This document shows positions 344 through 55,312 of a stretch of DNA of 64,000 nucleotides, piece by piece; the stretch's first letter is position 1, and each line of letters begins with the position of its first letter. This DNA is from Candidatus Stahliibacteriota bacterium (GTDB lineage: Bacteria; Hydrothermota; Tepidihabitantia; SM23-42). The position numbers and the translations under genes were made by a program. The notes beneath the pieces are model-generated. The model saw nothing but the letters and a program-made list of their open reading frames with translations. It had not been told where the DNA came from and did no database searches. The DNA lies in assembly GCA_030609135.1 (NCBI GenBank), contig JAUWCU010000002.1, positions 4,798-68,797 on the forward strand, given 5' to 3'.

Positions 344-420
344 TGTAGTTGCCCAATTTATTGGGCTGTTTATTATAGTCTTTAGACTCCTATTTTATGC
401 CTGATGAATCAGGCAACTAC
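344..420. mobile_element. MITE-like hairpin repeat, copy 1 (divergent variant)
   Basis: TGTAGTTGCCCAATTTATTGGGC ... GCCTGATGAATCAGGCAACTAC: terminal inverted repeats of the same family as 9249-9341, 9663-9710, 21394-21442 and 35743-35832. Confidence 0.45.
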
Positions 421-601: not shown

Positions 602-966
602 TAACACAAAGAGTGTATGAGAAGGCAGAAGGAGGTAAAAAGATGGCTAAGAAATAAGATTAATGACAAAATTTAAAATTTGATATTCGGCATTTGGAAT
701 TCTCTTTTAATAACCTCTCTGAGTCCTCTCATGCCTTGCTCGATAAATCGAGCGACTACAATATGTGGAGTTAGACCACTGGTGTGGGTTTGTAGTCGTT
801 TGACTTCCCACACCAAAATCTTTGGTGAGGGGACTTATCAAACAACACCCGATAAACCCCGCTCCTCTGTGAGGAACGTGGGTAAATCGCACCACTACAT
901 TTTTCGAAATTCATCCTTCAGGGGCAAACCTTTTATAGCAGTGGAGAGGACTCAGCAAACATCGTC

Positions 967-9210: not shown

Positions 9211-9248
9211 CAAATTCCTAAATACCTAAAATCCAAAATGCCTAAAAT
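9211..9248. repeat. Mosaic repeat module (AAATACCTAAAATCCAAAATGCCTAAA)
   Basis: Reverse complement of the module present at 35895-35925 and 55215-55245. Confidence 0.45.
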
Positions 9249-9341
9249 TGTAGTCGCCCGATTTATCGGGCAATGTCTGATAAATCCCGCAATCCTATTT
9301 GTAGAATTATAATACGAAGCGGGATAAATCAGACAACTACA
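9249..9341. mobile_element. MITE-like hairpin repeat, copy 2 (full length)
   Basis: TGTAGTCGCCCGATTTATCGGGC at the left end and GTCTGATAAATCAGACAACTACA at the right end (about 23-bp imperfect terminal inverted repeats). Internal long inverted repeat GTCTGATAAATCCCGC...GCGGGATAAATCAGAC with a TATAAT-containing loop. Confidence 0.6.
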
Positions 9342-9381
9342 GTGCTATACTCTCTATTAAGTAACGGTGTATTGGAGTATG
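9342..9381. repeat. 40-nt direct repeat (copy a) flanking the MITE copies
   Basis: gtgctatactctctattaagtaacggtgtattggagtatg is repeated exactly at 9711-9750. Confidence 0.6.
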
Positions 9382-9584
9382 GGAGTAATCGTGTAAAACA
9401 GTTATTGAGTTATAAAAAACGTATCGTTCGTTTAATTCGTTATTATCGTTTAGATCGTTTCGTCCATTGTCTTCTGTTAAGATGGTTTTTTTACGAATAC
9501 GATATTCTTTGTTTCTTCGTTGATCTGGTTTTCTTGTTTCTTACTTCTCACTTCTCACTTCTTGCCTCTTATCTCGGTAGCTAC

Positions 9585-9632: not shown

Positions 9633-9662
9633 ATCTACTCTCTACGCCCTACGTTCTTTATC

Positions 9663-9710
9663 GTAGTCGCCCGATTTATCGGGCAATGTCTGATAAATCA
9701 GACAACTACA
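9663..9710. mobile_element. MITE-like repeat, copy 3 (internally deleted short form)
   Basis: GTAGTCGCCCGATTTATCGGGCAATGTCTGATAAATCAGACAACTACA: same terminal inverted repeats as copy 2 with the central hairpin reduced to GTCTGATAAATCAGAC. Confidence 0.55.
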
Positions 9711-9920
9711 GTGCTATACTCTCTATTAAGTAACGGTGTATTGGAGTATGCGAGTATCAGAGGATATCGTATTCGTAAATCGTCCCGCAAAGCGGGATCC
9801 TCGATTTACCGATCATTATATGCATCAATATGAAAAATCGGGATGCATCGTACTTGTAATTTTGGATTAAAACGAATACGATTTACGAAATACGAGTACG
9901 ATTATCATCTCTGCTGTTTA

Positions 9921-21346: not shown

Positions 21347-21393
21347 GTTACTGAGGAAAAAATGAAATGGTTCTCATATCATCCACGATATGA

Positions 21394-21442
21394 TGTAGTC
21401 GCCTGATTTATCAGGCTTTGTCCAATAAATTGGACAACTACA
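21394..21442. mobile_element. MITE-like repeat, copy 4 (short form) between ybeY and corC
   Basis: TGTAGTCGCCTGATTTATCAGGC ttt GTCCAATAAATTGGACAACTACA. Confidence 0.5.
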
Positions 21443-33985: not shown

Positions 33986-34492
33986 CTAATTACCTAAGAT
34001 ACCGAGTTTCTTCTTCAAATATGGTATCAAACCATTGTTCGTAACTATCTTTAAAATAAAATCCGGCAGTTTCTTTGCTTTAATGATTTCATTAGTGCGC
34101 ATGTTTTTAATTATACCGATTAGTAGATCAATTTCAATATCATCGTTGTGCTCAACCTGCTGCGTAATCCCCGGCGCGATAATCACTGGCAGACCCAAAT
34201 TGATTGCATTCCTGTAGAAAATCCGGGCAAAGGTTTCCGCAACAACCGCTCTGACACCAAAATACTTAAGGCAAGTGGCGGCTTGCTCACGGGATGAACC
34301 GCAGCCGAAGTTCTTGCCGCCGACTATGATATCACCGGGATTTGCATTTTTCAGGAATTCAGGATGGACCGCTTCAAAACAATGCTTTGCCATTTCCTCG
34401 CGATCTGCAGTAATAGATAGATACTTACCCGGATAGATCACGTCAGTATTTATATTGTTGCCGAATTTGTATACATGTCCCTTAATCAACAT
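33986..34492 (-). CDS. leuD: Aconitase-family small subunit (3-isopropylmalate dehydratase LeuD-type)
   Basis: NTDVIYPGKYL...GKNFGCGSSREQA signature of LeuD/HacB small subunits. Confidence 0.85.
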   Translation of the reverse strand: MLIKGHVYKFGNNINTDVIYPGKYLSITADREEMAKHCFEAVHPEFLKNANPGDIIVGGKNFGCGSSREQAATCLKYFGVRAVVAETFARIFYRNAINLGLPVIIAPGITQQVEHNDDIEIDLLIGIIKNMRTNEIIKAKKLPDFILKIVTNNGLIPYLKKKLGILGN

Positions 34493-35742
34493 GGTTCAGT
34501 TATCTCCCCTTTCAGCGCTGAAGCCGCCACGGTCCCCGGTGAAGCCAGATAAACAAAAGCTTCCGGACTGCCCATCCGCCCCTTAAAATTGCGATTTGTC
34601 GTTGCCAGACAAATTTCTTCAGGAGCAAGTAAACCCTGATGTGCACCGAGGCAAGGTCCGCAACCTGGATTCAATACAAGTCCACCGGCTCGGACAAAAA
34701 TCTCAATATAGCCTTTATGTAGAGCCTCAAGATAGACTCTGCGTGAAGCCGGGATCACTAATAACCGGGTGTCTGGATGTACTGTTTTACCCTCTAAAAT
34801 CTCGGCTGCGGCAGCCAAATCTTCTAATCTCCCATTAGTACACGACCCGATTAATGCCTGGTCAATCTTTAGGCCGGTTATTTCACTGACCGGTTTGACA
34901 TTGTCAACTGAATGTGGACAGGCAACTTGACTCGTTAAGCTACTGACATTGATATTCAATTCACCACTATATTCAACATCTTGATCAGGTAAGATAACCT
35001 GGAAATGTTTATCGGTCCTCTTTTTTAGATACGCTATGGTTTGTTCATCCGGGGGCACAAACGCGACTTTTGCCCCCATTTCCATAGGCAGATTGGAAAG
35101 AACCATACGTGATGCGATAGTCATATGAGATATTGTTTCACCATGGAATTCTACTGCCTGGTAATTGGCACCATCCGCACCCAATATCCCGATAATATGC
35201 AAGATAAGATCCTTTGCCGTTACACAAGGTTTGAATTTCCCATCCACATTAATCTTTATTGATTCCGGTACGCGCAACCATAGTTCTCCGGTTGCCCAAA
35301 CGCCAGCCATTTCCGTAGCCCCAATTCCGGTTGCAAAAGTGCCAAAAGCACCATGTGTAGTTGTATGAGAATCAGTGCCTACTAAGACCTCGCCAGGTAA
35401 ATCATGCCCCAATTCCGCTAAAACCTGGTGACAAATCCCTTGTCTCAAATCATAGAAGTACTTGATCTGCTGTTCTTTTGCAAATGTCCGTAAACGACGA
35501 TGAGTAGCTGCGGTCCTTTCACTATCTGCAGGTATACGGTGATCGAATAGTATGACAATTCTCTCCTTATCCCAAACTTTTTTAACACCGATTTCTTTAA
35601 ACGATCTTAACACAACATCGGCATTTTCATGGGACATAGCCACATCAACTCTTGCCATAACAATTTCGTTAGGCGATACTACTTTTTTACCTGACGCTCT
35701 GGCTAAGATTTTTTCAGCAATCGTTTTATTCATAGAAATCAT
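34486..35742 (-). CDS. leuC: Aconitase-family large subunit (3-isopropylmalate dehydratase LeuC-type, short archaeal-type form)
   Basis: Fe-S cluster ligands and motifs VGTDSHTTTHGA, GSCTNGRLEDL, NPGCGPCLG. Alternative start at Met4 (MNKTIAEKIL). Confidence 0.85.
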   Translation of the reverse strand: MISMNKTIAEKILARASGKKVVSPNEIVMARVDVAMSHENADVVLRSFKEIGVKKVWDKERIVILFDHRIPADSERTAATHRRLRTFAKEQQIKYFYDLRQGICHQVLAELGHDLPGEVLVGTDSHTTTHGAFGTFATGIGATEMAGVWATGELWLRVPESIKINVDGKFKPCVTAKDLILHIIGILGADGANYQAVEFHGETISHMTIASRMVLSNLPMEMGAKVAFVPPDEQTIAYLKKRTDKHFQVILPDQDVEYSGELNINVSSLTSQVACPHSVDNVKPVSEITGLKIDQALIGSCTNGRLEDLAAAAEILEGKTVHPDTRLLVIPASRRVYLEALHKGYIEIFVRAGGLVLNPGCGPCLGAHQGLLAPEEICLATTNRNFKGRMGSPEAFVYLASPGTVAASALKGEITEPC

Positions 35743-35832
35743 TGTAGTCGCTCAATTCATTGAGCAGCCTGATAAATCCCGCAATCCTGTTTGTAGAATT
35801 ATAATACGAAGCGGGATAAATCAGGCAACTAC
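35743..35832. mobile_element. MITE-like repeat, copy 5 (full length), immediately abutting the leuC start codon
   Basis: TGTAGTCGCTCAATTCATTGAGC ... GCCTGATAAATCCCGC...GCGGGATAAATCAGGCAACTAC. The left terminal inverted repeat begins 1 nt after the leuC ATG (35740-35742). Confidence 0.6.
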
Positions 35833-35865
35833 GTTTTTGAAAATCAGATTCATCAAAAGCGTTTA

Positions 35866-36063
35866 ATCCGTCCCTTCGGTGATCTGGTTCATTTAGGTAT
35901 TTAGGCATTTTGGATTTTAGGTATTTGCTTTTTCTCCGGTACACCGTTACTCCCTTACGCCGTTTCCCCCAGTCTCCTTGTCCCCTTATCTTCAAAGATC
36001 CCCTGATCTCCTGACCCCACGTGTCTCCATGTCTCCGTTTCTCCATTTCTCTGTTTCTCCGTT
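35866..36063. repeat. Mosaic repeat modules plus five tandem octamers (GTKTCTCC / reverse-complement GGAGAMAC) ending at the ccl stop codon
   Basis: 35876-35985 share about 100 nt with 55195-55300 (gatctggttcatttagg...acaccgt.actccc.tacgccgtttccccc.gtctcc). 36020-36059 = gtgtctcc atgtctcc gtttctcc atttctct gtttctcc. Confidence 0.5.
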
Positions 36064-36828
36064 TCATTTCGTAATGTCCCGCTCCCATGGTCCATCATAG
36101 GTAACTTCTTGTTCACACATACGACGCATAGGCTTCTGCGTCGTCATTTCCTCGTACACATGTGCGATAAGACCAGCACATCGACCAATTAAAAAGAAAG
36201 CTTTACCGAGTTTCCAATCAAACCCCATATCTGATATGATCGCAGCGATTGCTCCATCGACATTTATGGGTAATGCTTTGCCCTCAGCGAATTCTTCTTT
36301 CAGCGCAAGGCTCAGCTTTATATGCTCTTTAGTGATTTTTAAATCATCAGCCATTTCATAGAGCCGTTTGGTTCGGGGGTCGTTTTTATGGAGGCGATGA
36401 CCAAACCCGGGCATGCGTCTACCCTGCTTTTTAAGAGTCTTTAGTAGTGTCTGAGCAGTTCTTTCATAATCCCACTTTTCCTCTTGCCTTTTCTTTACCC
36501 AATTCTGTAAAATGCGTGCACCATCTTCAATTGCTCCACCGTGGACATCACCAACTGCCAAAATCCCTGCAGCAACTGCACTAGGCAAAGGTACACCAGC
36601 TGAGGCAACGATGCGCGCAGCGTGTGTTGAGGGTGGAGTAACACTGTGGTCAATTGAGGAAGTAATGATTGCATCGATCATTTTCGCTTCTTTTTTATCC
36701 GGCATTCTTCCTCTTATCAGAAGAAAAAATACTGAACTAAATGGTATATTACCGATAAGGTCTTCCTGACGATAGCCGCGTGTTACAATATTATCTGGTT
36801 CAACCTTTGAAATCTTTGTTTGCCACAT
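36064..36828 (-). CDS. Citrate-synthase-like short protein, candidate citryl-CoA lyase (Ccl-like; equivalent to the AclA C-terminal domain)
   Basis: 254 aa containing the citrate synthase signature GFGHRLHKNDPR and catalytic His/Asp region but lacking the N-terminal half of a true citrate synthase. Lies directly downstream of SucC/SucD-like genes. Confidence 0.6.
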   Translation of the reverse strand: MWQTKISKVEPDNIVTRGYRQEDLIGNIPFSSVFFLLIRGRMPDKKEAKMIDAIITSSIDHSVTPPSTHAARIVASAGVPLPSAVAAGILAVGDVHGGAIEDGARILQNWVKKRQEEKWDYERTAQTLLKTLKKQGRRMPGFGHRLHKNDPRTKRLYEMADDLKITKEHIKLSLALKEEFAEGKALPINVDGAIAAIISDMGFDWKLGKAFFLIGRCAGLIAHVYEEMTTQKPMRRMCEQEVTYDGPWERDITK

Positions 36829-36944
36829 AATTGTTCCTCCAAATACCTAAAGTTGTGGGAGAGCCTTTCCAGGCTCGATTTTCGCGGGCAGCCCGCCCCC
36901 AAATATTTTTCCATAGCTTCTTGCCATTAATCGCCTTCTTTGCC

Positions 36945-37841
36945 TTATCCTGGCTTCTCCTGCCTTTTTCTGTCTTCTAAAGCCCTTTTCACAAGTATCG
37001 GTATCTCGCTCAGTGTTTGCGCAAGTATTGCGCCGTGCTTTTGTAAAGCTTCAATTTTGCCATGAGCAGTACCCATATTACCCTCAATGATCGCACCAGC
37101 ATGACCGAGCCGCTTACCTTGAGGTGCTGCTTTACCTGTTATATAAGCAATAACTGGTTTTAACATATGTTCAATAAAAGGAGCTGCTAATTCTTCATAA
37201 ACCCCACCGATTTCACCGGCCATCACAACCGCATCGGTCTCAGGGTCATTTTCAAACAATCGTAATATGTCCTCGTAGTTTGCTCCCAGGATTGGATCCC
37301 CACCCAGACCAACTGAAGTCGATTCACCAAAGCCAGCAAGGTTTAGAGAATTTGCCAAATAATATGTCACGGCGCCGCTGCGTGCAATCGTACCTATGCG
37401 TCCGGGTTTAAAGGTAATTTTTGGGAGCATACCAACGAGTGCCTTACCTGGTGAAATTACACCTGGCGTATTGCCTCCTATAACGACGACACCCTTTTCT
37501 TTGGCTTTCTGGCGTGCGTATAGCATATCGTGAATTGGGATGCATTCAGTTATTACAATGACCGTTTTAATACCGGCATCAATTGCCTCAAGTATTGCAT
37601 CCTTTGCAAAACGTGGCGGTACCCAAATGCTTGACACAGCAGCATCCGGATGTTTTTCCAAACACTGGTGTACAGTATCATACACTCTTACACCTTCAAC
37701 TTCCTGACCACCTTTGCCCGGCGTCACACCACCAGCGATCTTTGTCCCGTATTCGAGCATGAACTTTGTATGGAGTGATGCATTTTTTCCAGTAATCCCC
37801 TGGACTATCGTTTTCGTTTCATTATCAATAACAATACTCAT
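36945..37841 (-). CDS. Succinyl-CoA synthetase alpha-subunit-like protein (candidate citryl-CoA synthetase small subunit / split AclA N-domain)
   Basis: CoA-binding Rossmann N-domain and the phosphohistidine loop GHAGAII. Confidence 0.7.
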   Translation of the reverse strand: MSIVIDNETKTIVQGITGKNASLHTKFMLEYGTKIAGGVTPGKGGQEVEGVRVYDTVHQCLEKHPDAAVSSIWVPPRFAKDAILEAIDAGIKTVIVITECIPIHDMLYARQKAKEKGVVVIGGNTPGVISPGKALVGMLPKITFKPGRIGTIARSGAVTYYLANSLNLAGFGESTSVGLGGDPILGANYEDILRLFENDPETDAVVMAGEIGGVYEELAAPFIEHMLKPVIAYITGKAAPQGKRLGHAGAIIEGNMGTAHGKIEALQKHGAILAQTLSEIPILVKRALEDRKRQEKPG

Positions 37842-37846
37842 TGTTA

Positions 37847-39079
37847 TTATTCCTTATCTGCGCAATCTGTGTCCGCCTCTGGCGGATTTTCTGTGTCAAT
37901 CTGTGTCTTGGCCACCCGGATCGTTTCCTTAATCACTTGCTCAATAGGTGTATCAACCGCATATATCTTGATTTTTTTGAATAGCTCTGGAAAATTTCTT
38001 TTTGCTTGTTCCAGTATTTTTCTGCCCTGCTCTTCCATATTACCGGCCATCCTCATGATCATCGGTTTTTCAGGTTTGTTTTCCTTTACATATTGCACTA
38101 TTGCCCTTGCCCAATCATCACACCGAGAAATGCCTCCAAAACGGGCACCGAATATAGCTTTCACTTTAGGGTTATCAACAAGCAATCCAAGCATAGCCCG
38201 GAGCTTTTCTTGAGTCGGAGCACCACCTGAATCCATAAAGTTAGCCGGTTTTCCTTGATAAAGTGTTATCAAATCTATCGCCGCAATGCCAAAACCAGCA
38301 CCTCCGGGGAATACACCGATATCACCATCAAGATCCACATAAGGGATACCTTTCGCCTTAGCTATTTGTTCGCGTTGGGTCAACTCCCCGAGCTCGTGCC
38401 TTGCCACAATACCCATTTCTTTGAGTTCTCGGTGCTTAAACATAGCATCTTCGTCAAGGTCAATTTTGGCATCGAGCGCATAAATGTTTCCGTCTTTTGA
38501 TAAAACCAGCGGGTTAATTTCAACTAACTTACAATCAAAGCCTAAGAAAAGTTTGTACACCTTCAAGATAATACCCGCAACTATCCCTAACCCATCACTC
38601 GAGAATCCCAAATCACCTGATATAGTTCTTGCCTTAAAACCATGCATTATTTCACCTGGATTAAAGTAATACTTTAATAATGCACCAGGATCGTCTTTAG
38701 TAATTGCTTCTATGTCCACGCCGCCTTTTTTGCTCGCCATAAATAAGAGCTTATGCTCGAGCCGATCGATCAATGCAGCAATATATACTTCTCTTTCAAT
38801 ATTTATTTTCTTCTCCAGGAGAACTTTCTCAATGACAAATGGACCATGCTTCTTACCTAAAATTGAGCATATCATGGCCTCAGCCTCTTCTCTACACTCG
38901 GCAAATTGAACAAGCCCAGCTTTGCCCCGGCCGCCTAAAAACGCCTGTCCTTTAATAACCACCGGATAGACGACCTTATCCAGCTCATTGAAGCTATCCC
39001 TACTGATGACAACTGACTCGGGTACTGGTATCATGTACTTTCTGAATAGTTTTTTTGCTTCGAATTCGTATAATCTCAT
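37847..39079 (-). CDS. Succinyl-CoA synthetase beta-subunit-like ATP-grasp protein (candidate citryl-CoA synthetase large subunit / AclB-like)
   Basis: The ATP-grasp N-terminus MRLYEFEAKKLF..GGRGKAG parallels SucC; the C-terminal CoA-ligase domain differs from the canonical SucC glycine-rich loop. Confidence 0.7.
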   Translation of the reverse strand: MRLYEFEAKKLFRKYMIPVPESVVISRDSFNELDKVVYPVVIKGQAFLGGRGKAGLVQFAECREEAEAMICSILGKKHGPFVIEKVLLEKKINIEREVYIAALIDRLEHKLLFMASKKGGVDIEAITKDDPGALLKYYFNPGEIMHGFKARTISGDLGFSSDGLGIVAGIILKVYKLFLGFDCKLVEINPLVLSKDGNIYALDAKIDLDEDAMFKHRELKEMGIVARHELGELTQREQIAKAKGIPYVDLDGDIGVFPGGAGFGIAAIDLITLYQGKPANFMDSGGAPTQEKLRAMLGLLVDNPKVKAIFGARFGGISRCDDWARAIVQYVKENKPEKPMIMRMAGNMEEQGRKILEQAKRNFPELFKKIKIYAVDTPIEQVIKETIRVAKTQIDTENPPEADTDCADKE

Positions 39080-39150
39080 CGGCTATAATTATATAAAAAT
39101 AAAAATATATTGCAATAGGCAGTGACCACAGTGTGGTATTGCAGGTATCG

Positions 39151-39660
39151 CTATTTTGATCTTTCTATATCAAAATCTATAAAATCGCAGTGATGTATAA
39201 TTACAGCTTCATTAGAACGCTTCACCTTCTCGCCTTCAACTGAATGGGCTGCCACGATGTGGGCAACTTCAATGGGCAAACCAGCATCAAGGGTTAAACC
39301 ATATCCTGCTACTGGATGCCGAATAAGTTTACCAAAACTGGACTTAGTGTATTTTTTACCAAGCTTTTTGTATTCAAGTAATTTCCCGACGTCATGGACC
39401 AACCCGCCGGCAATAATGTGGTCTATTTTAACATCCTGGCGTTTACCTGCTACTGCTATTGCCATACGCGTAACTGCCCTGGTATGTTCAACGAGTGTCT
39501 TTTTTGTCTTGATGAGCAGAGTAAACGGTATTTTGTCAATTCTCTGCCACTTGCCTTTTTTCATAGCTAATAGCCATACTGCGATAACGCCTTCGCGAAG
39601 TGATTTACTTGTTATCTTTTCAATCTCAGGAAATAGCTTTATTATGTATTTTTTATCCAT
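39151..39660 (-). CDS. HD-domain phosphohydrolase
   Basis: HTRAV...GGLVHDVGK HD motif; 169 aa. Confidence 0.7.
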   Translation of the reverse strand: MDKKYIIKLFPEIEKITSKSLREGVIAVWLLAMKKGKWQRIDKIPFTLLIKTKKTLVEHTRAVTRMAIAVAGKRQDVKIDHIIAGGLVHDVGKLLEYKKLGKKYTKSSFGKLIRHPVAGYGLTLDAGLPIEVAHIVAAHSVEGEKVKRSNEAVIIHHCDFIDFDIERSK

Positions 39661-39798: not shown

Positions 39799-42700
39799 CT
39801 ACTGCCCGGACAGAGGCTGTACCAAAACGTCGTCGTAATCAGTCACCATACCCTCTTGTTCCAAGACCCCAATACCAATACCTCCATTGATAAATGGATT
39901 ATCATTGTCCGTATAGCTAATTCGAAGGCTGTCATTCAAGTAGCCTTTAATCTGATGAGGTTGGGATTGAATTTCAACCTTGAGGTTGTACCAGACATTT
40001 TGCTCGGGCTTGAAAGGATAGCTTGCGAGGAATATCCAAATTCCGTTGACTCGTTTGTAAAGGTCAATGCAACCTGCATCACCATGAATGCCGAAGCGGT
40101 AGTAATTCAAATCATCCTGTACCCGGAAAAAGACGTATGATTTCAACCAAGACACACTAGCACTACCTATTATTCTGGTCCTAACCTGATATTGGTAATT
40201 CGTCCAGTCGCAAGCCTCAGCCACGGTGGCAAAATGCGTGCTGCCGCTACCCCGGGCAAAACTAGGTTCTTCGGGCGGAACGAACCATGTTCCTTGGCGT
40301 TTGTTCCATAGGGTATCCATCACACCACTATCAAAGTTGTCAGCGAACAATGTATCTGGTGGTTCGAGCGGACGCACGACAATGTCATCGTAATAGTTGG
40401 TCATATTGCCTTCAGTAATACCGATGCCGATACCACCATACTGATATTTTGTGTCATTGGCAGTAATTACTTGCTTACCATTGAAGAAACAACGAATCCA
40501 ATTGCCCTGAACCTTAACCGCAAGATTGTACCAGCTGTCCTTCTGGGGTTGAAAATCATAAGTACCAAGCCTTGTCCATCCATGTAAGCTATCGCGTCGA
40601 TAGAGCACGAGCCTTGGTTCATCTCCCTTTATTCCGTATCTGTAGTACTGAGTGTCATTTTGGACACGGAAGAAAACATAAGATTTGAGATACGGTATAT
40701 CCGGATGAGTACTTCCCGCCATTTTAGTATTGACCTGAAAACGGTAATTGGTCCATCCTTCATCACCCGCACCGACTGTGGCAAGGTAAGAAGAATAATT
40801 CCCACTGCCTTTTGCACTGCTGTCCTCAACCGACCACGCATTTGGATCATCCCATTTATACCATTGACTACTCATTGAACCAGAATTAAAATCGTCATAG
40901 AAAATATCTCCGGGTAATGGTCTCATTGCCCGGTTAACCTGCTCTGTAATACTACCAACCGTATCACTGTTACTAATAGCGGTTATGTAGAGGGTACCGA
41001 CAGTATCTTTTAATTCTAAAAATACTTCAACTTCTTTGGTTCCATGTCCGGGGAGTGTAACCGGATTGTTCCCAATGAATGCTATCTCTCCATGTCCTTG
41101 TGTAAATGCTCCAGTCAAGGTAACAGACATCGTATCAGTTGTGTTGTTTATCAAAGTCAATGGAAAGCTATCACCAGTCGGAAACTTTATGAATAAATCT
41201 TCGGGTAGCTCAAGGCTCACCGGGTCATAAACCCATACTGTAAACAATGTTGAATCATCTGGCGTCGGGCTAGTATTAATCACCCAGAAAGTATCTTCAC
41301 CAAGGGGATGGGTATCTGGGATTGTAAAATCATATTGAATCTCCCGAACTTCACACTGACGCAGCCAAAAAGTACGAAAAGAGCAATTCCCAAATGGTGT
41401 GGTGATTAGCAACGCGTATTGTTTAGAGCCGAACTCAAGATTCTGAACCCGGAGTTTGAATTTTCCAGCCTTACCTTGGCAGAGCACTGGTGAAGACATC
41501 GATGAATATTCGTACCTCGGTTCCTGACTGAGCCGAACAAGTGCGGAAACCATGTGTTCGGGCACATTAAGCATATCCATGGCAGTAGGATCGTAATAGA
41601 CCCATCTTGGTCCAAAATAATCTCCTGACAAAACATAACAATGATCATACGTGCCTAATCCGGGGAACATTATTTTAACACCCAGATTGTATCTAAATGG
41701 ATCCATGCTGACTTGTGACCTATCCATGTTCACCATTGGAATAAGCAAGTCATTATCTGGGATTTTAAAAATATTGCCTTTAATATCTGCAGGCAGTCGT
41801 AGAGCATGGGCATTAAGTACCCATGTCTTACCCTTATACAAATTAAAAAGAGGTTGATACTTAAGGTCTATTAAGCGACTTAAGGGTTCATCTACATTAG
41901 CCTCAAGGCTTGGATAAAGTCCACCATACAAAGCAGTCTTGTCCTTGGTTTCGGTCTCACTAGCTAATGTGTCAATGACAAAAAGTATTAAAGGGCGGGA
42001 TAGACCAAGATACTGCAGACAACTTACTACTTCAGGATGTCTTTCAACCATGATTCCATCGATGTTTTTACATACCTCCACGCTTGTGGGCCCATTGGCT
42101 AAAATGCCTTTGTTACGATTATGCACCTCTCTACAGATTTTTTCATTTATTTCTTCCAGCGCAAATCCAAGCATATAGACAGGAGTAGTATTAATCATGG
42201 TCACGCTATCGTTGTGAGCGTAATCATAATAGTGGTAATCATCCCGGTCATAGAAGATACCTGCCGCTGGAAAACTATCTAAAACAGCCGTTATCTGAGT
42301 GTCGATGTATGCCGCCCAGGAACGTTCACCCGGGGGATAAAAGGACAAAAGATTCGTGTCCGGATTCATAAGTCGGCATGCTTGAAAAGCTTTAAGGGGA
42401 TTTCCATCCTGATCTTTCGCAAGAGATGAATCAAAAGGAAAAGGTATTGTGTCATTATATACCCAACTTTTCCATGCCTCCATAGACTGAGTATATGGAT
42501 ATGAACCAATCTGATGATCATTAAATAAATTCATAATGTACGTAATGGTATCGTAGGTATAATAATCATTGCCGGCGTGTCGAAGCCAATATTTATAAGT
42601 CGTAGTGCTATCTCCATCTCTTATGCCCAGCCATTTGAAACGGTCCTGGGGTACATAGAGGCCAAAAAATGCCTTGTTGTGATAGTATTCTTCCCATTTT

Positions 42701-43905
42701 ACTCCGAATATTTGACAGGTATCTATTTTTTCCAGCTCACCAAATGTCCAGGAACCTGCTATGAAGAATCGTCCTTCATAGTCTTGTATTTGGGAACTGT
42801 CATGAGGTGTAAAATATTCTGGATACCGTGTTTGCATATAGGCAAGCCCTGGTCGCCAGTCGCCTTCATGAGGGACAAGATACAATGAAGTCTGGGCAGC
42901 CTGGCTCTGCGGTACGTACATTTGCATATAATTGTATGAGACCCTAAAAGTATCGGAAGCAGGGGTTTTTCTTAATTTAAATTGCAGTCGCGGTTTTTTC
43001 ACTTCAAATGGGCAGATAAAAGATACACCATAATCCAAAGTGGTATCATATAGAGTTACAGACGGCAAAATGCAGAAATTCTCACGATAGATGATTGTTT
43101 TATTGAAGTAGTCTTCGATGAAATACGGTGCATTGGCATCAGCCCAGAACGCATATTGCATTGTATCAAGAAGCGGTAAAGAAAAATCCAGACGCAATGA
43201 GCGTCTTGTCGGATTCTCAATATTGAGCCAGACATGATTATCCCAACGTAATCCGAGTGTATCCATTGTATAACTAACCAGTGCCTGATGATTCGGAAAA
43301 TTAATTTGAAAGCTGATCATCCCCTGTGTGGGAGTATTAACCGTGTCAATATAAACTAAGGAATCAACATCCTCATCTTGCAGATATTCCTGACTTATCA
43401 GCGTGTCCCGGAATACTATTTGTCCTGGCTCATTAGCTGAGAGCAACCCACTATGACCTTTTACTGTCAGACCGCGTATCACGCCTGTTTGCCTCCAGAA
43501 TATCACCTCCATGTGGATGTTGCGTAATATGATTAAGGTATCATTACTCTCGAATTCCACTTTCACCAGCTCAACTTCACCCATATTCACCGGTCCGATT
43601 TCAGGGTCATAAGTAATAACCTTGTTTCTAAAATATGAACCATATTCAAAATGAACATCATACTTACCTGCAGGAAGTGCACCGAACCGAGAAGCATGAA
43701 AATAACCATCTCCATACATCGGATGATGATAACTTACTGTATCAAGCACAATGCTCGTGTCGTTTTGATACACCGCCTTGATGTGGACTCCATTGGTTCT
43801 TACACCCTCTACCTTGGTAAAACCGTAGCAAAGTGTTTCTGCATAAGCAGTTTGCACAGCGCCCAGGCAAAACAATGCTACTATGAGTGACAAAATGTTC
43901 TTCAC
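39799..43905 (-). CDS. Large secreted protein (1368 aa) with two tandem C-terminal DUF1080/LamG-like jelly-roll domains
   Basis: Signal peptide MKNILSLIVALFCLGAVQTAYA. The last ~340 aa are two ~170-aa repeats (...W.NY.....K.YVFFRVQ.D..YYR.GI.GD...L.R...G.W..L..Y.F.P...WYNL.V..Q.....Y...D..........GGIGIG...). No recognisable catalytic motif in the N-terminal 1000 aa. Confidence 0.7.
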   Translation of the reverse strand: MKNILSLIVALFCLGAVQTAYAETLCYGFTKVEGVRTNGVHIKAVYQNDTSIVLDTVSYHHPMYGDGYFHASRFGALPAGKYDVHFEYGSYFRNKVITYDPEIGPVNMGEVELVKVEFESNDTLIILRNIHMEVIFWRQTGVIRGLTVKGHSGLLSANEPGQIVFRDTLISQEYLQDEDVDSLVYIDTVNTPTQGMISFQINFPNHQALVSYTMDTLGLRWDNHVWLNIENPTRRSLRLDFSLPLLDTMQYAFWADANAPYFIEDYFNKTIIYRENFCILPSVTLYDTTLDYGVSFICPFEVKKPRLQFKLRKTPASDTFRVSYNYMQMYVPQSQAAQTSLYLVPHEGDWRPGLAYMQTRYPEYFTPHDSSQIQDYEGRFFIAGSWTFGELEKIDTCQIFGVKWEEYYHNKAFFGLYVPQDRFKWLGIRDGDSTTTYKYWLRHAGNDYYTYDTITYIMNLFNDHQIGSYPYTQSMEAWKSWVYNDTIPFPFDSSLAKDQDGNPLKAFQACRLMNPDTNLLSFYPPGERSWAAYIDTQITAVLDSFPAAGIFYDRDDYHYYDYAHNDSVTMINTTPVYMLGFALEEINEKICREVHNRNKGILANGPTSVEVCKNIDGIMVERHPEVVSCLQYLGLSRPLILFVIDTLASETETKDKTALYGGLYPSLEANVDEPLSRLIDLKYQPLFNLYKGKTWVLNAHALRLPADIKGNIFKIPDNDLLIPMVNMDRSQVSMDPFRYNLGVKIMFPGLGTYDHCYVLSGDYFGPRWVYYDPTAMDMLNVPEHMVSALVRLSQEPRYEYSSMSSPVLCQGKAGKFKLRVQNLEFGSKQYALLITTPFGNCSFRTFWLRQCEVREIQYDFTIPDTHPLGEDTFWVINTSPTPDDSTLFTVWVYDPVSLELPEDLFIKFPTGDSFPLTLINNTTDTMSVTLTGAFTQGHGEIAFIGNNPVTLPGHGTKEVEVFLELKDTVGTLYITAISNSDTVGSITEQVNRAMRPLPGDIFYDDFNSGSMSSQWYKWDDPNAWSVEDSSAKGSGNYSSYLATVGAGDEGWTNYRFQVNTKMAGSTHPDIPYLKSYVFFRVQNDTQYYRYGIKGDEPRLVLYRRDSLHGWTRLGTYDFQPQKDSWYNLAVKVQGNWIRCFFNGKQVITANDTKYQYGGIGIGITEGNMTNYYDDIVVRPLEPPDTLFADNFDSGVMDTLWNKRQGTWFVPPEEPSFARGSGSTHFATVAEACDWTNYQYQVRTRIIGSASVSWLKSYVFFRVQDDLNYYRFGIHGDAGCIDLYKRVNGIWIFLASYPFKPEQNVWYNLKVEIQSQPHQIKGYLNDSLRISYTDNDNPFINGGIGIGVLEQEGMVTDYDDVLVQPLSGQ

Positions 43906-44003
43906 GCTATCCTCCTTTCCCCTTACTTTAATCGTTCGACTGAGATCACGTCGAAGTCCTCTCCCCTATGGGGAGAGGGAAGGGTGAGGGGAGTCAAGAT
44001 TCC

Positions 44004-45401
44004 CTATTTCATCTTCACAACCCGCACAGGCTTGAAACTCTTGTCTTCAGGGATGAAAAAATAAACCCCGGCAGAAAGACCAAAACCGATTTTATCCCCA
44101 GAATAACTACCAACCTGTCTCCCCATGATATCATAGAGAATAAAGTGTTCCCTTTCACAACCGAGAGCGGATGCAAAAGAAACAAATGGATTAGGAACAA
44201 CTTGTAAATTTGACGTGTAAGGTCGATGCCAAGCACTATTATTATCCTCGATCCCTGTATTTCCATCCGCATCGGTTTTGACAAGATAAACCTGACGCTG
44301 ATTTCCGAATGAATACGTAAACCCGGCGATGATATACCCACCATCTGTGGTCTGCTGGACAGAGTAGCTGCCATCGTTGGAGTTCCCGCCGTAGCATCTT
44401 ATCCATTGATCATTACCAAGAGAATCGATCTTTGCTACGTAGGCACTACCAAGCCCGAGAGCATCGGTATATCCTGCAACGATATACCCTCCATCAGTAG
44501 TCTGCTGAATACAAAATCCCTGTTCATAACCCTGACCTGATATCACCCCATACCCTCTGGTCCACAAAGTATCCCCGAGAGAATCAGTCTTTATGAGATA
44601 GACATCTTCATTGTTACTCGATATATACCAGTAGTATCCCGCGATGATATATCCACCATCTGTGGTCTGCTGGACAGAGTAGCCTTCTTGTACATTCGCA
44701 ACTCCTCTTTGGTATCTCCCTGTCCAGAGTGTATCACCAAGAGAGTCGGTCTTCACCAGGTAGACATCGTTTCCTATCATCCCCGCTGCAATATAACCCC
44801 CATTCTGCGTCTGCTGAACTGAATAGCCATTGTCATCGAAATTTCTAGTCCATAGAGTATCTCCGAGAGAGTCGGTTTTGATAAGGATAAAGTTACCTTG
44901 ACGGTCACAATAATCCCACCAATAAGGACCGCCAACAATAATATACCCTCCATCAGTAGTCTGCCGAACACAATTCCCACATGAGGCACCTCCATATGTT
45001 TTAGTCCATAAAGTGTCTCCAAGAGAATCGATTTTAACAAGATAAATATGTTCATTATTTCCAAAAGAAGTAGTGTAACCGGTGATGATATAGCCTTCAT
45101 CAACGGTTTGCTGGACAGAGTAGCCCCAATCTCTCCCTGTCCCTCCATAGATCTTAGCCCAGAGCGTATCTCCGAGAGAATCGGTCTTCACCAGGTAGAT
45201 CTGGTCGCTATCTCCATAAGAACTAGTATATCCTACCACTATATAGCCACCATCTGTGGTTTGGTCTACAGAACGACCTTCCTCATAGCCCGCCCCTCCA
45301 TAGTTCCTCTCCCACATCAGTTGAGAAAAACCTGTGCCTGCAAAGACCATGACAAGCAGCACCCAGAGCACAAGCCGAAGTGGATTAAAATCTTTTTCCA
45401 T
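44004..45401 (-). CDS. SBBP beta-propeller-repeat surface protein with a T9SS-type C-terminal sorting domain
   Basis: Signal peptide, then about 9 repeats of ...GG.G.D.GYSVQQTTDGGYIIAGYT.S.G....YLVKTDSLGDTLW...; the C-terminus ...GVYFFIPEDKSFKPVRVVKMK resembles Por-secretion CTDs. Confidence 0.7.
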   Translation of the reverse strand: MEKDFNPLRLVLWVLLVMVFAGTGFSQLMWERNYGGAGYEEGRSVDQTTDGGYIVVGYTSSYGDSDQIYLVKTDSLGDTLWAKIYGGTGRDWGYSVQQTVDEGYIITGYTTSFGNNEHIYLVKIDSLGDTLWTKTYGGASCGNCVRQTTDGGYIIVGGPYWWDYCDRQGNFILIKTDSLGDTLWTRNFDDNGYSVQQTQNGGYIAAGMIGNDVYLVKTDSLGDTLWTGRYQRGVANVQEGYSVQQTTDGGYIIAGYYWYISSNNEDVYLIKTDSLGDTLWTRGYGVISGQGYEQGFCIQQTTDGGYIVAGYTDALGLGSAYVAKIDSLGNDQWIRCYGGNSNDGSYSVQQTTDGGYIIAGFTYSFGNQRQVYLVKTDADGNTGIEDNNSAWHRPYTSNLQVVPNPFVSFASALGCEREHFILYDIMGRQVGSYSGDKIGFGLSAGVYFFIPEDKSFKPVRVVKMK

Positions 45402-45794: not shown

Positions 45795-46307
45795 TTATTC
45801 ATTATGGTTTTTCTTCTTCAGATAATCAAGTAAGCCGCCCGCCTTCATGATTTTCATTTCAAGCGGTGTAATAGCGATGCCTTGATAAACCTTATTCTGT
45901 GATAAATTAGTGATTTTACCATTTTCAATGTTAACCTCAAGCCGGTCTTTCTGTTCAATCTCCCCGGTTCTATCAAATAGCACAATCGGTAAACCAGTAT
46001 TAACCGCATTTCTATGGAATATCCTGGCAAAAGACCTGGCGATCACAAGAGAAACACCAATACCATGGATACCTACAGTCGCATGCTCACGTGAAGAACC
46101 GCAGCCGAAATTCTTGCCGGCTACAATAATATCACCCGGTTCCACGTTTTCTATGAATTCTTCCCCGCCAGGCGCGCCTTCCATAGCATGGAGCGCCATT
46201 TCCTGCTTGTCAGTAATGGGCAGATACTTACCCGGATATATCTGGTCAGTATCAATATCATCTCCAAAGCACCATACCTTTCCTTTAATTATCACATTAC
46301 ACCTCAC
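45795..46307 (-). CDS. Aconitase-family small subunit, second copy (LeuD-type)
   Basis: DTDQIYPGKYL...GKNFGCGSSREHA. Confidence 0.85.
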   Translation of the reverse strand: MRCNVIIKGKVWCFGDDIDTDQIYPGKYLPITDKQEMALHAMEGAPGGEEFIENVEPGDIIVAGKNFGCGSSREHATVGIHGIGVSLVIARSFARIFHRNAVNTGLPIVLFDRTGEIEQKDRLEVNIENGKITNLSQNKVYQGIAITPLEMKIMKAGGLLDYLKKKNHNE

Positions 46308-47592
46308 GTGGATCAGTAATGACTCCTGTCAAAGCAGTCGCGGCAGCGGTTGCTGGCGATGCAAGAAAAACTTTAGCACCTTGACCGAGCTTGCCTATGA
46401 AATTACGATTTGAAGTAGAAACCATTACTTCACCAGGTGCAAGAATACCAGGGTGTCCAGTCGTACACAGTGCACAACCCGGGTTGGTCACCACGGCGCC
46501 AGCATTTATAAAAATGTCGTACAAGCCTTGTTTCAGTGATTTTTTTGCTACTTCCATGGTTGCTGGCACAATAATTAAACGCATACCAGGTTTAATTTTA
46601 TTCCCTTTTAATATTTGTGCAGCGATATTCAAATCCTCAAATCTACCATTAGTACAAGAACCTATGAAAACCTGATCAACCTCAGTCTTGGCAATATTTT
46701 TAACATCCTTTACATTATCCGGTGAATGGGGACAGGCGATCTGGGGTTGCAGATCATCGATATTGAATTCATGTATTTCTTCGTATACAGCATCTGAGTC
46801 AGGTTCAATTGTTTCAACCTTTTCTTTAGTCCTCGTTTTGATATAATCCAAAATCTCATGGTTAGGCTGTATAAAACCGATATCTCCAGACATCTCGGTT
46901 ACCATACTTGCCATTGTTATACGTTCAGCAAGATTCAAATGGTCGATTGTCTGACCAGAGAATTCGACTGCCCGGTTGAGCGCACCGTCAGTCTTCAATG
47001 TCTTGAGTAGAAAAAGTATTATATCTTTTGCCGTAACGAACTTCTTTAGTTTACCAGTAACTTCAATCTTGATCGTTGGTGGTATACGAAAATATAACTC
47101 ACCCTTGTACATTGCGCCGGCAATATCGGTTGTGCCCATACCAAACCCTGCAGCACCGACCCCACCAAGCAGATTCATATGACTATCAGTACCAACAATA
47201 ATATCCCATGGTTTTGCCAAACCGTTTTCAAAAAGAATATGCTGACCAATACCTGTATCGATGTCAAAGAGTTTTACACCTTGACGAGCAGCAAATTCCC
47301 TCAAGAATTTTTGATTTACCGCGACTTTCTCGTCACGAGCAGGGATATGAAGGTCAAAAGTTATCACTACTTTTCTATTATCAAATACCGACTGTTCACC
47401 AAACTTGTTCTGATATTCCTGGATAACATTTGGTCCGCCAAAATCGCGCATCGCTACAAGATTCAATTTCGCCCAGATATATTCACCTGGTTTAACATCT
47501 TTACCTGCCGCGCGTGCAAAAATCTTCTCAATGATTGTCATGGCTTTGCCAAGCTTACAAAATCCAAGTTCCAAGAACCAAGAGTTAAGCAC
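46297..47592 (-). CDS. Aconitase-family large subunit, second copy (LeuC-type)
   Basis: VGTDSHMNLLGG, GSCTNGRFEDL, NPGCALCTTGH Fe-S cluster motifs. Confidence 0.85.
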   Translation of the reverse strand: MLNSWFLELGFCKLGKAMTIIEKIFARAAGKDVKPGEYIWAKLNLVAMRDFGGPNVIQEYQNKFGEQSVFDNRKVVITFDLHIPARDEKVAVNQKFLREFAARQGVKLFDIDTGIGQHILFENGLAKPWDIIVGTDSHMNLLGGVGAAGFGMGTTDIAGAMYKGELYFRIPPTIKIEVTGKLKKFVTAKDIILFLLKTLKTDGALNRAVEFSGQTIDHLNLAERITMASMVTEMSGDIGFIQPNHEILDYIKTRTKEKVETIEPDSDAVYEEIHEFNIDDLQPQIACPHSPDNVKDVKNIAKTEVDQVFIGSCTNGRFEDLNIAAQILKGNKIKPGMRLIIVPATMEVAKKSLKQGLYDIFINAGAVVTNPGCALCTTGHPGILAPGEVMVSTSNRNFIGKLGQGAKVFLASPATAAATALTGVITDPREV

Positions 47593-47595
47593 ATA

Positions 47596-48021
47596 CTAAT
47601 CTTTGACTTTGTTATAGATTGATCCGAAAATATTTCTGAGTTCATATGATTCCTGGACCAATATTACTACTGTTTCTTGATTACCAATCTGCGTTCTTCG
47701 CATAATGCGTAGCCAATAATTCGATTCTCTTGTCTCTTTAAGAACAATGCTAATCTTATGCCTAAAGTCTGCTTTTGAACTGGTCGCCTGAGCTTCCTCA
47801 TAATTAGCGCCGACTGAAGTACCTGATTTTGCCAGTTGATACCTAATAACATCATTTTCTTTTTCGTAGGGAACTGTTTTCAGGAGATCAATAATGGCAA
47901 CTGCAAATTCAAATGTTCTCTCTTTTAAATCAATGATATATTCTGCTCCTGGTTCCTTGACCTCAAATCTTAATGGTGCTTTTTGAATGATCTCATATAC
48001 TTTTTCTTGTTGACACTTCAT
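47596..48021 (-). CDS. Four-helix-bundle protein of the 23S rRNA intervening-sequence protein family
   Basis: ERTFEFAVAIIDLLKTVP...IRYQLAKSGTSVGANYEEAQ...SKADFRHKISIVLKETRESNYWLRI is the TIGR02436-type signature. Start placed at MKCQQ (48021); the ORF-track extension overlaps the upstream gene by 17 nt. Confidence 0.7.
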   Translation of the reverse strand: MKCQQEKVYEIIQKAPLRFEVKEPGAEYIIDLKERTFEFAVAIIDLLKTVPYEKENDVIRYQLAKSGTSVGANYEEAQATSSKADFRHKISIVLKETRESNYWLRIMRRTQIGNQETVVILVQESYELRNIFGSIYNKVKD

Positions 48022-48073
48022 TATTCCTATCACTCTCTTGGTTCTTGGAACTTGGTTCTTGGAACTTGAGAAA

Positions 48074-49165
48074 TTACAATTTCTCTGCAATGGCTTCTGC
48101 CATTTCTAAGCTCGTCGCCTCACCGCCCATATCATACGTTTTGGTTTTTCCTTCCTCGATAACCTGGGCAACCGCTTTCTCGAACCGGTCCGCAGCAGCG
48201 TGTTCGCCAAGCCATTCAAGCATCATTTTAGCAGCAAGGATTGTTGCGATCGGGTTTACCTTATACATACCAGCATATTTTGGCGCTGAGCCGTGGGTCG
48301 GTTCAAAAACTGCATAGCTGTCACCAATATTACCGCTCGAGCCAAAACCGAGACCCCCGGTCATCTGCGCACATAAATCAGAAATAATATCACCATATAG
48401 GTTGGGTGCAACCAGAATGTCGTAGTTAAATGGTTTCTTAAGCAACCACTGACAAAGAGAATCAACATTCGCATTATCAGCTTCAATACCAGGGTAGTCT
48501 GCAGCAACCTGATCAAATTTTTCAAGGAATAAACCATCTGTTGCTCTCACGACATTTGCCTTATGGACACACGTAACCTTTTTCCTTTTGTGCTTTTGTG
48601 CAAAATCAAAAGCTGCTCGGACAATCCTCTCGCACCCTTTGGGCGTATTGACCTTCACAGAAATAGCTGCATCCCTGGCTACATTTTCCATTCCCTTGAT
48701 CGACAACATTTCTACAGGAACTTGATTATACTCAATGCCCGAGTACAGATCTTCAGTATTCTCCCGAAAAATGACAAAATCAATACCCTCTTTAAAGTTC
48801 AGTGGGTTACCTTTATACGCCTTACACGGACGTTTGCATATGTATAAATCAAACTTCTGACGCATTCGCACAATCGGACTTCGGTAAACCAAACCTTTGT
48901 TTCTTAAGCTTGGTACGAGTTCAGTATCGGCAATACTCTTTGGTTTTGAAGTTATTGCACCGAACATCGCACAATCAGTACTCCTCATTAGTTCAACAGT
49001 TCGCTTAGGCAGAGGCTCGCCTTCTTTGCACCAGAATTCCCAACCTACATCACCATGTATGTATTGAGCATCAAGACCAATTCTATCAAGGACGATTCTT
49101 GTTGCGTCGAGAACATCCTTTCCTATACCATCACCAGGTAACCAGGCAATCTTATATTTTGCCAT
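48074..49165 (-). CDS. Beta-decarboxylating dehydrogenase of the isocitrate/homoisocitrate/3-isopropylmalate dehydrogenase family (HICDH-like subgroup)
   Basis: FGAITSKP (compare GAATSP of Thermus homoisocitrate dehydrogenase), DLYICKRP, FVIFRENTEDLYSGIE, NLYGDIISD, HGSAPKYAGMYKVNP (Icd-like APKYAG rather than the LeuB APDIAG). Confidence 0.8.
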   Translation of the reverse strand: MAKYKIAWLPGDGIGKDVLDATRIVLDRIGLDAQYIHGDVGWEFWCKEGEPLPKRTVELMRSTDCAMFGAITSKPKSIADTELVPSLRNKGLVYRSPIVRMRQKFDLYICKRPCKAYKGNPLNFKEGIDFVIFRENTEDLYSGIEYNQVPVEMLSIKGMENVARDAAISVKVNTPKGCERIVRAAFDFAQKHKRKKVTCVHKANVVRATDGLFLEKFDQVAADYPGIEADNANVDSLCQWLLKKPFNYDILVAPNLYGDIISDLCAQMTGGLGFGSSGNIGDSYAVFEPTHGSAPKYAGMYKVNPIATILAAKMMLEWLGEHAAADRFEKAVAQVIEEGKTKTYDMGGEATSLEMAEAIAEKL

Positions 49166-55109: not shown

Positions 55110-55165
55110 TCAATAAGTTATTCAGTTATCAGGTCATTATGTCACTGAGTCATTAAGTCATTTTT
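55110..55165. repeat. Tandem octamer array (RATGACYN x about 7) immediately upstream of the truA start
   Basis: Minus-sense reading aatgactt aatgactc agtgacat aatgacct gataactg aataactt attgaATG. Confidence 0.45.
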
Positions 55166-55312
55166 TACGAATACGATATTCTCCGTTTCTTCGTTGATCT
55201 GGTTCATTTAGGCATTTTGGATTTTAAGTATTTACTTTTTCTCCAATACACCGTCACTCCCCTACGCCGTTTCCCCCGGTCTCCGTGTCTCCAGCAAAGC
55301 GTGTTCATTCCG
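55166..55312. repeat. Mosaic repeat modules (TTTACGAATACGATATTCT... and CATTTAGGCATTTTGGATTTTAAGTATTT...CCGTTTCCCCCGGTCTCC)
   Basis: 55161-55205 matches 9487-9535; 55195-55300 matches 35876-35985; a reverse-complement partial copy lies at 9211-9248. Confidence 0.5.

Follow-up and report, generated by a model that had tools for sequence, protein, structure and literature searches.

Miniature inverted-repeat transposable elements (MITEs), such as the Correia elements of Neisseria and Nezha of cyanobacteria, are small, non-coding, intergenic elements with terminal inverted repeats that may carry outward promoter-like sequences with effects on adjacent genes. Other described short repeats are the GTAG-tagged repetitive extragenic palindromic (REP) elements, REP doublets forming hairpins (REPINs) and bacterial interspersed mosaic elements (BIMEs) (Di Nocera et al. 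2013, PMC3733652; Bertels & Rainey 2011, PMC3116915). REPs overlapping annotated N-termini have been explained as over-long start calls (PMC3733652). Leaderless and Shine-Dalgarno (SD)-independent initiation are described in bacteria (Zheng et al. 2011, PMC3160421; GeneMarkS-2, PMC6028130; Nakagawa et al. 2017, PMC5397173). Here we compare these systems with a short repeat that adjoins the start of acnL, the gene of an aconitase-family large subunit, in a 64,000-nt stretch of DNA from Candidatus Stahliibacteriota bacterium (GenBank assembly GCA_030609135.1, contig JAUWCU010000002.1, positions 4,798 to 68,797 of the forward strand). The whole stretch is referred to as the window, and positions are given within it.

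A sequence-only reading of this DNA had described the repeat as a MITE lying flush against the start codon of leuC, and had proposed that its insertion rewired a biosynthetic operon. That observation is correct, and its interpretation is over-reaching and supported in part. Rather than a demonstrated MITE, the repeat is a REP doublet of the GTAG-tagged kind (REPIN/BIME-like) without coding capacity. The true start is most likely Met4, judging from homologous sequences, and the repeat shows no evidence of having rewired the operon.

The repeat at the acnL start is a GTAG-tagged REP doublet

The longest acnL open reading frame (ORF) covers 34486–35742 on the minus strand (418 aa), and we refer to its first ATG as Met1. 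The 91-nt repeat begins at 35743 (TGTAGTCG...), directly beside this ATG, and ends at about 35833 (...CAACTACG). On the sense strand, the sequence upstream of the start is ...gagcgactacaATGatttctATGaataaaacg. As had been noticed, it offers no SD: GGAG, GAGG and AGGA are absent from the 20 nt before either Met1 or Met4.

In each REP unit, (A/T)TTGTAGTYG precedes a 7-bp palindrome whose loop is 2–4 nt long (for example ATTGTAGTCGCCCGATTTATCGGGC). Two inverted units produce a Y-shaped structure closed by GTAGT/ACTAC, and the outer 8 nt of the element are inverted repeats (TGTAGTCG / CAACTACR). The element folds into a Y-shaped hairpin of −38 kcal/mol as RNA (z = −5.2) and about −21 kcal/mol as DNA (z about −6), and the doublets fold with z-scores of −5 to −8 across copies. 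The loop of the second unit holds a nested 36-nt insert, which is the source of the AT-rich TATTAT/TATAAT and was recognized by comparing the long form (9275–9340, 35767–35832) with the short form (9688–9709).

We compared the window with loci of relatives (designated L081–L092 and so on), including L082 (JGI 3300042087), whose product has 89% amino acid identity to that of the window, and we scanned JGI metagenomes with a degenerate REP unit, which gave at least 120 loci. Besides two copies in the window, the 36-nt insert was seen only in L082. It contains TTGTAG and an AT palindrome, AATTATAAT, and has the appearance of a very small element within the REP loop (35771–35822, 9279–9330). A different nested hairpin lies at the equivalent loop position in L121:9142–9225.

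Within the window, a 16-nt core of the element has 9 matches at ≤3 mismatches, against 0.34 expected. Two families of direct repeats (D4 and D8) tie the element to 342–381, 9247–9340 (97% over 64 nt), 9660–9699 and 21392–21431. The 22-nt pattern of GTAGTYG, 7-bp stem and 2–4 nt loop matches ten times; one match (3372) is due to chance and the others are true units. They make up six REP loci in the 64 kb, all of them intergenic, and the short doublets are about 50 nt long (Table 1).

The structure of the family was assessed on 216 units, taken from the window, L082 and 120 metagenome loci among the matches listed. The variable stem positions form Watson–Crick pairs in 214–215 out of 216 units, against 113–116 under independence. 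On the REP strand, T occupies position −1 in 79% of the units and position −2 in 52%, and the commonest arrangement is that of inverted +/− doublets with a 28-nt offset. This is a well-defined GTAG-REP family with textbook stem covariation in the uncultured WOR-3 phylum.

For the metagenome matches listed, the flanking genes of REP clusters are co-directional in 59 cases, convergent in 14 and divergent in 10, and 13 out of 141 REPs lie inside ORFs. The distance from REP to start codon is <20 nt in 20 out of 100 cases, and the distance to a stop codon is <20 nt in 22 out of 107. Given the start distances, close apposition to a start codon is common for this family. Most start-proximal copies keep an SD between REP and ATG (L096, L196, L162), whereas the arrangement in L106 is similar to that at acnL.

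Target-site duplications are absent around the five window copies, and the only 8-nt duplication surrounds the nested 36-nt insert. No insertion sequence (IS) or transposase was found within the window, and Rfam, searched at gathering thresholds, matched nothing in the window except tRNA-Gly, so that no described RNA family corresponds to the element. We classify it as REP/REPIN rather than MITE because target-site duplications are lacking and because it matches the published definition of GTAG-REPs and REPINs.

Elsewhere in the metagenomes, Y1_Tnp genes resembling REP-associated tyrosine transposases (RAYTs) have GTAG-tagged hairpin repeats on either side (L121:2690–3420 and L210 at about 5006–5533). 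These repeats are other GTAG REPs, and the same two contigs also carry the REP family of the acnL element. The left flanking repeat in L121 contains CCCCCGATTCATCGGGGG, which is the palindrome core (CCCGATTCATCGGG) of that family. Two further REP-flanked ORFs in metagenome loci, considered as RAYT candidates, turned out to be unrelated enzymes. Of note, a REP end plus 47 nt of its right flank is duplicated at 98% identity in the mutM–valS spacer of the window (9323–9387 and 9692–9756), which indicates that REP-containing segments duplicate locally.

Start and identity of acnL

Three lines of evidence point to Met4 as the start. NCBIfam profiles begin at residue 6–7 of the 418-aa ORF. The 120 closest homologues are nearly all 413–416 aa long, with the N-terminus MNKTIAEKIL or MTIAEKIL, and begin at Met4 or 2 aa later; homologues also place the organism in candidate division WOR-3. 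In L082, which has the same element at the same site (...actacaATGatctctaATGaataaa), a 1-nt insertion places the upstream ATG out of frame and into a stop. On these grounds, the ATG at 35733–35731, which lies 9 nt beyond the hairpin base, is most likely the true start, as the sequence-only reading had allowed. Met1 is probably a gene-calling over-extension of three codons up to the element.

The names leuC and leuD hold at the level of the LeuC/HacA subfamily and not beyond it. The product scores 499.9 against TIGR02083 (cut-off 610.65) and 517.7 against HacA_Meth (cut-off 550), and only subfamily models were passed. Its neighbours are ccsA, ccsB and ccl; neither leuA nor leuB is among them, and the cluster is not a leu operon. 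A search of genome contigs with the LeuC-like protein retrieved only relatives of ≤60% identity. From its sequence, acnL appears assignable only to the LeuC/HacA subfamily.

The window holds two paralogous LeuCD/HacAB-like pairs (45795–49165 and 33986–39660, both on the minus strand) with 73–79% nucleotide identity in places, and the pair at 45795–49165 adjoins a leuB/ICDH-like gene. One neighbourhood, conserved in WOR-3 relatives, unites both pairs with this leuB/ICDH-like dehydrogenase, ccsA, ccsB, ccl and an HD protein; in the window, 1368-aa and 465-aa repeat proteins (39799–45401) are inserted between its halves. One LeuCD-like pair may serve citrate/isocitrate interconversion and not leucine synthesis.

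Upstream alleles in related genomes

The ccl–acnL spacer is longest in the window (330 nt), followed by L082 (272 nt) and L092 (145 nt), and measures 113–117 nt in both L083 and L087. Four allele types were distinguished (Table 1): A, ancestral and with an SD; T, without SD and without REP; R, with the REP doublet; and F, a gene fusion. The sequence-only reading had proposed a comparison with relatives that lack the insertion. Relative to the ancestral alleles the SD has been lost, and its GGAG survives in more distant alleles only, but the element-free alleles of L092 and L081 (...aataactgaATGAAT) are already SD-less. Alleles of both the R and the T type have the SD-less ATGAAT start (ATGAATAAA), and the element therefore cannot be held responsible for the disappearance of the SD. 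This is one of the reasons why the proposed rewiring of the operon by an insertion is not supported.

Nucleotide identity over acnL and acnS is 94% between the window and L081 and 94–95.5% between L082 and both L090 and L092, and about 89% between these groups. R and T alleles each occur in both identity groups, and this implies that recombination or parallel change took place. A simple insertion model with an empty site was rejected, as no allele has R-type flanks without the element. In a MAFFT alignment of the upstream alleles, which was set aside, the R-type hairpin was wrongly matched to the T-type module.

Seen as a whole, the ccl–acnL spacer is a recombination and repeat hotspot, in which genomes of 89–95% identity differ by having any of four upstream configurations and in which both the SD and the start codon of the ancestor have been replaced. 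The upstream segment of the F type is homologous to the segment upstream of the paralogous acnL of the window. At this locus (L090, GCA_030606995.1, contig JAUWFH010000215.1, positions 1–376, compared with window 47541–47660 and 35733), the four-helix-bundle gene and spacer of the paralogue are joined exactly at the ATG of the acnL orthologue. The join reflects either recombination between paralogues, with deletion of about 12 kb including ccsAB–ccl, or a chimeric assembly. In two close relatives the contig ends shortly before acnL, at 46 nt from its start in one (L081:1) and at 21 nt in the other (L091:1), consistent with assembly failure in a repeat-rich spacer.

Period-8 low-complexity arrays (GGAGAAAC-, AAATACCT- and TGACTTAA-type) build such spacers in the window (9212–9246, 9369–9387, 35891–35926, 35997–36065, 55110–55162) and in relatives (L082:4729–4870, L092:843–925). 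Without exception they have the same sense as the co-directional genes around them, and as mosaic modules they are found again at several loci (35891–35993 compared with 55206–55292, 90% identity). Their repeated GGA/GGAG motifs could be protein- or ribosome-binding sites. A 120-aa ORF (35726–36088, minus strand) covers the whole ccl–acnL spacer; its translation, MGAGHYEMKRRNREMEKRRHGD..., consists of octamer arrays and REP, and it is almost certainly spurious.

The element itself is strongly conserved between the window and L082. It is identical at 92 out of 93 positions, whereas third codon positions differ at 73 out of 424 (Fisher p = 5e-6) and the adjacent spacer at 11 out of 94 (p = 0.005). 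The one substitution (C to U) leaves a G-U pair in the RNA of the sense strand. Such conservation would be compatible with selection on structure, homogenization by other copies or recent exchange. When the window and L082 were compared by sliding window, no clear recombination tract emerged around the element, as some coding windows were equally conserved.

If the element were a true MITE, IS-derived and bounded by terminal inverted repeats, its insertion might have destroyed the ancestral ribosome-binding site and reduced or silenced acnL–acnS expression in this lineage. We consider this very improbable. The outer inverted repeats of 8 nt would agree with it, but the overall architecture is that of two inverted GTAG-plus-palindrome units, as in REPINs, and neither target-site duplications at any copy nor a related IS in the scanned window ORFs were seen. 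The spacer has grown from about 115 nt to 330 nt and the ancestral SD is missing, as such an insertion would predict; against this, the SD-less start is shared with element-free alleles, and the acnL and acnS ORFs are intact, with 89–94% nucleotide identity to relatives and no frameshifts, which argues against silencing.

Transcription and translation initiation of acnL

We surveyed initiation signals in the window and its WOR-3 relatives. An SD core was present in 31 out of 94 genes and absent from 63 out of 94, and a missing SD is not unusual here. Leaderless candidates were recognized by a −10-like box close upstream of the start, as in Zheng et al. (PMC3160421). Hexamers of this kind that end 5–8 nt before the start codon numbered 15 against 2.9 expected (p = 5e-7); all were in SD-less genes and none in SD-bearing genes. 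Most of the leaderless candidates have a near-consensus −35 at about 17 nt (TTGACA, TTGCAA or TTGACT).

The cluster ccsA–ccsB–ccl–acnL–acnS is co-directional. The gene order HD, ccsA, ccsB, ccl, acnL, acnS, TrkA, TPR, DUF366, radical SAM is kept in relatives, with synteny of the cluster in L082–L088. A scan of the minus-strand spacers between ccsA and acnL found no intrinsic-terminator motif, and a likely operon promoter precedes ccsA (Table 1).

We think it probable that acnL is expressed by read-through as part of the operon with SD-independent initiation at Met4, downstream of a REP doublet. Transcription would start at the near-consensus ccsA promoter and continue through ccsA–ccsB–ccl–acnL–acnS. 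On this transcript, the element would form a stable Y-shaped RNA hairpin. Initiation would take place independently of an SD at the AUG region, which is unpaired and A/U-rich in the minimum-free-energy fold, as would be needed in the element-free sister alleles too. If it has a role at all, the hairpin is probably a barrier between operon segments in mRNA stability or processing, as REPs are elsewhere. We infer read-through transcription, SD-independent initiation and any RNA-level role from these features taken together. Two other functions considered for the hairpin were rejected. It is not a sense-strand terminator, as no U-tract follows it and the terminator scan gave no matches. Nor does folding bring an SD near the AUG, as none is present immediately 5′ of the hairpin (GAUUUUCAAAAA).

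Several points weigh against this reading of the element and of acnL expression. Read-through, which we infer, does not account for efficient translation of acnL. The hairpin is strong (−38 kcal/mol) and its end lies 9 nt ahead of the AUG, where it could impede 30S binding. Among the genes of the cluster acnL is the odd one out, being neither SD-led nor translationally coupled nor canonically leaderless, and the other internal genes (ccsB, ccl, acnS, trkA) are SD-led. The conservation of the element hints at selection or recent exchange, unlike a purely passive passenger. Finally, no Y1_Tnp/RAYT gene was found in the approximately 40 window ORFs scanned with Pfam or NCBIfam.

It has been suggested that expression is driven from within the element, by TTGCCT-16-TATTAT (35828–35801). 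Firing at acnL with a leader of about 60 nt, this would be a portable promoter that frees acnL–acnS from ccsA. The motif is, as stated, inside the element and the sole minus-strand promoter-like match in 35500–36300, and thus in the spacer; a perfect TATAAT overlaps its −10. Its score of 9/12 is nevertheless at chance frequency, with 3 such matches against 1.6 expected in a first count and 20 against 16.8 expected over the operon (7.4 kb), whereas the likely real promoters in the genome score 10–12/12 and lie at leaderless distance. A transcript from this point would lack the 5′ arm and with it the −38 kcal/mol hairpin, but it would be leadered without an SD. The whole element including the loop is kept in L082 (92/93). 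In the only other long-form copy (9250–9340), the motif faces the opposite way, antisense to the end of mutM at its 3′ side. We therefore regard an internal promoter as unlikely.

A second candidate signal is the REP terminus, ...CTACAAT, which could supply a leaderless −10 (TACAAT, 35746–35741) and would explain the missing SD. The leaderless signature of SD-less genes in this lineage (15 against 2.9 expected, p = 5e-7) lends it some plausibility, as do the R-type alleles, which place TACAAT at 5–8 nt from the ATG. In L082, the 1-nt indel keeps the distance within this range: the box, at ≥5/6 to TAnnnT, ends 8 nt before the ATG. What is found at the −35 position is GGCTGC (GCTGCT or AGGCTG at other spacers), with 0–1/6 at spacers 16–18 and no extended −10 TG, and this region lies within the stable hairpin. 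Moreover, the T-type alleles of L092 and L081 have the same start without a TACAAT box. A leaderless acnL transcript is thus quite doubtful.

We give equally little credence to a stronger form, in which the REP doublet is not a passenger: by its insertion, a gene inside the operon that had been SD-led would have become leaderless and been transcribed on its own, in a lineage rich in leaderless mRNAs. If true, such a leaderless conversion would explain why the element is 5–10x more conserved than its neutral neighbours across genomes that have diverged by about 10%.

Table 1 Coordinates of the acnL locus, REP copies, promoter-like sequences and upstream allele types
Feature	Position or locus	Strand	Remarks
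Aconitase-family large subunit (LeuC/HacA subfamily), acnL	34486..35733	-	likeliest start Met4, ATG 35733-35731
Cognate small subunit (LeuD/HacB family), acnS	33986..34492	-	SD GGGGAG; overlaps large-subunit end
Annotated upstream ATG (Met1)	35740..35742	-	probably unused; straddles fuzzy element boundary, out of frame in L082
REPIN-like doublet, long form	35743..35833	.	REP unit A 35744-35765 (GTAGTCG + palindrome CTCAAT/ATTGAG) and inverted REP unit B 35767-35832, nested insert in unit B loop
Nested 36-nt insert (CCGC...GCGG), loop of REP unit B	35779..35814	.	8-nt direct duplication GATAAATC at 35771-35778 and 35815-35822
TACAAT at REP terminus (family consensus ...ACTACAA-)	35741..35746	-	ends 7 nt before Met4 ATG
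Promoter-like TTGCCT-16-TATTAT in element	35801..35828	-	9/12, chance level
Remainder of expanded 330-nt ccl-acnL spacer	35834..36063	-	mosaic of period-8 arrays (35891-35926, 35997-36065) and a small hairpin (35831-35862); part of it recurs at 55161-55292
ccl 36064-36828, ccsB-like 36945-37841, ccsA-like 37847-39079	36064..39079	-	profile matches
Likely operon promoter TTGCAA-16/17-TATAAT	39088..39115	-	ends 8 nt before ccsA ATG, leaderless-type; kept in L082, L084, L087
Near-consensus leaderless promoters (TTGACA-17-TATAAT)	window 16031, 18242, 26105, 39079(-), 51580(-), 62796(-), 62914; L082:1564, L084:1988, L087:910		SD-less genes
Second long-form copy	9250..9340	.	mutM-valS spacer; orientation relative to transcription opposite to acnL copy
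Short-form doublet	9663..9709	.	empty site for 36-nt insert
Short-form doublet	21395..21441	.	49 nt upstream of CNNM-family gene start
Doublet with 32-nt spacer	345..420	.	between tRNA-Gly and minus-strand gene
Single REP unit	738..759	-	pattern match
Allele type A (ancestral)	L083, L087, L091		cgatttgtccGGAGaataaaATGACG, SD present
Sequences of type A	L083 AGAGGAcaaaATG; L087 GGAGAAtaaaATG; L091 GAAGGttaaaATG		keep ancestral GGAG
Allele type T	L092, L081		...ttacttaataactgaATGAAT; no SD, no REP
Allele type R	window, L082		REP doublet and other modules
Allele type F	L090		four-helix-bundle gene and spacer fused at ATG

Implications for annotation

The finding matters mainly as a correction: the annotated acnL start is three codons too long as the ORF runs into the REP, a known pitfall. 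Where two thirds of the genes lack an SD, the apparent anomaly of a start codon with no room for one dissolves. The leaderless-promoter signature should inform gene calling in these genomes.

Comparison with known systems

Like GTAG-REPs, REPINs and BIMEs, the acnL element has a 5′ GTAG tag followed by a short imperfect palindrome. As in REPINs, two units in inverted orientation come together in a larger hairpin, and, as with REPs and BIMEs, there are many copies, extragenic and mostly between co-directional genes. Mixing with other short repeat modules is shared with the BIMEs of E. coli, and copies that touch an N-terminus are explained by over-long start calls, as for known REPs (PMC3733652). 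The family differs in its host, a bacterium of the WOR-3 candidate phylum, which lies outside the 2013 survey (PMC3733652). It differs from known REPs also in its AT-centred palindrome (CCYRAT-TYAT-YRGG) with many compensated stem variants, and in a long form with a nested 36-nt insert and an 8-nt duplication.

The element resembles the Correia and Nezha MITEs in being small, non-coding and dispersed intergenically and in carrying a promoter-like sequence. Unlike them, it has no target-site duplication or parent IS that we could find, and its repeat unit is a GTAG-plus-palindrome pair in place of IS-derived terminal inverted repeats. Like bacterial leaderless systems, the lineage has TANNNT/TATAAT boxes about 10 nt upstream of SD-less starts, side by side with SD-led genes. 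Unlike the leaderless class, acnL has only the −10-like part and no −35, and it is more likely an atypical gene, leadered without an SD.

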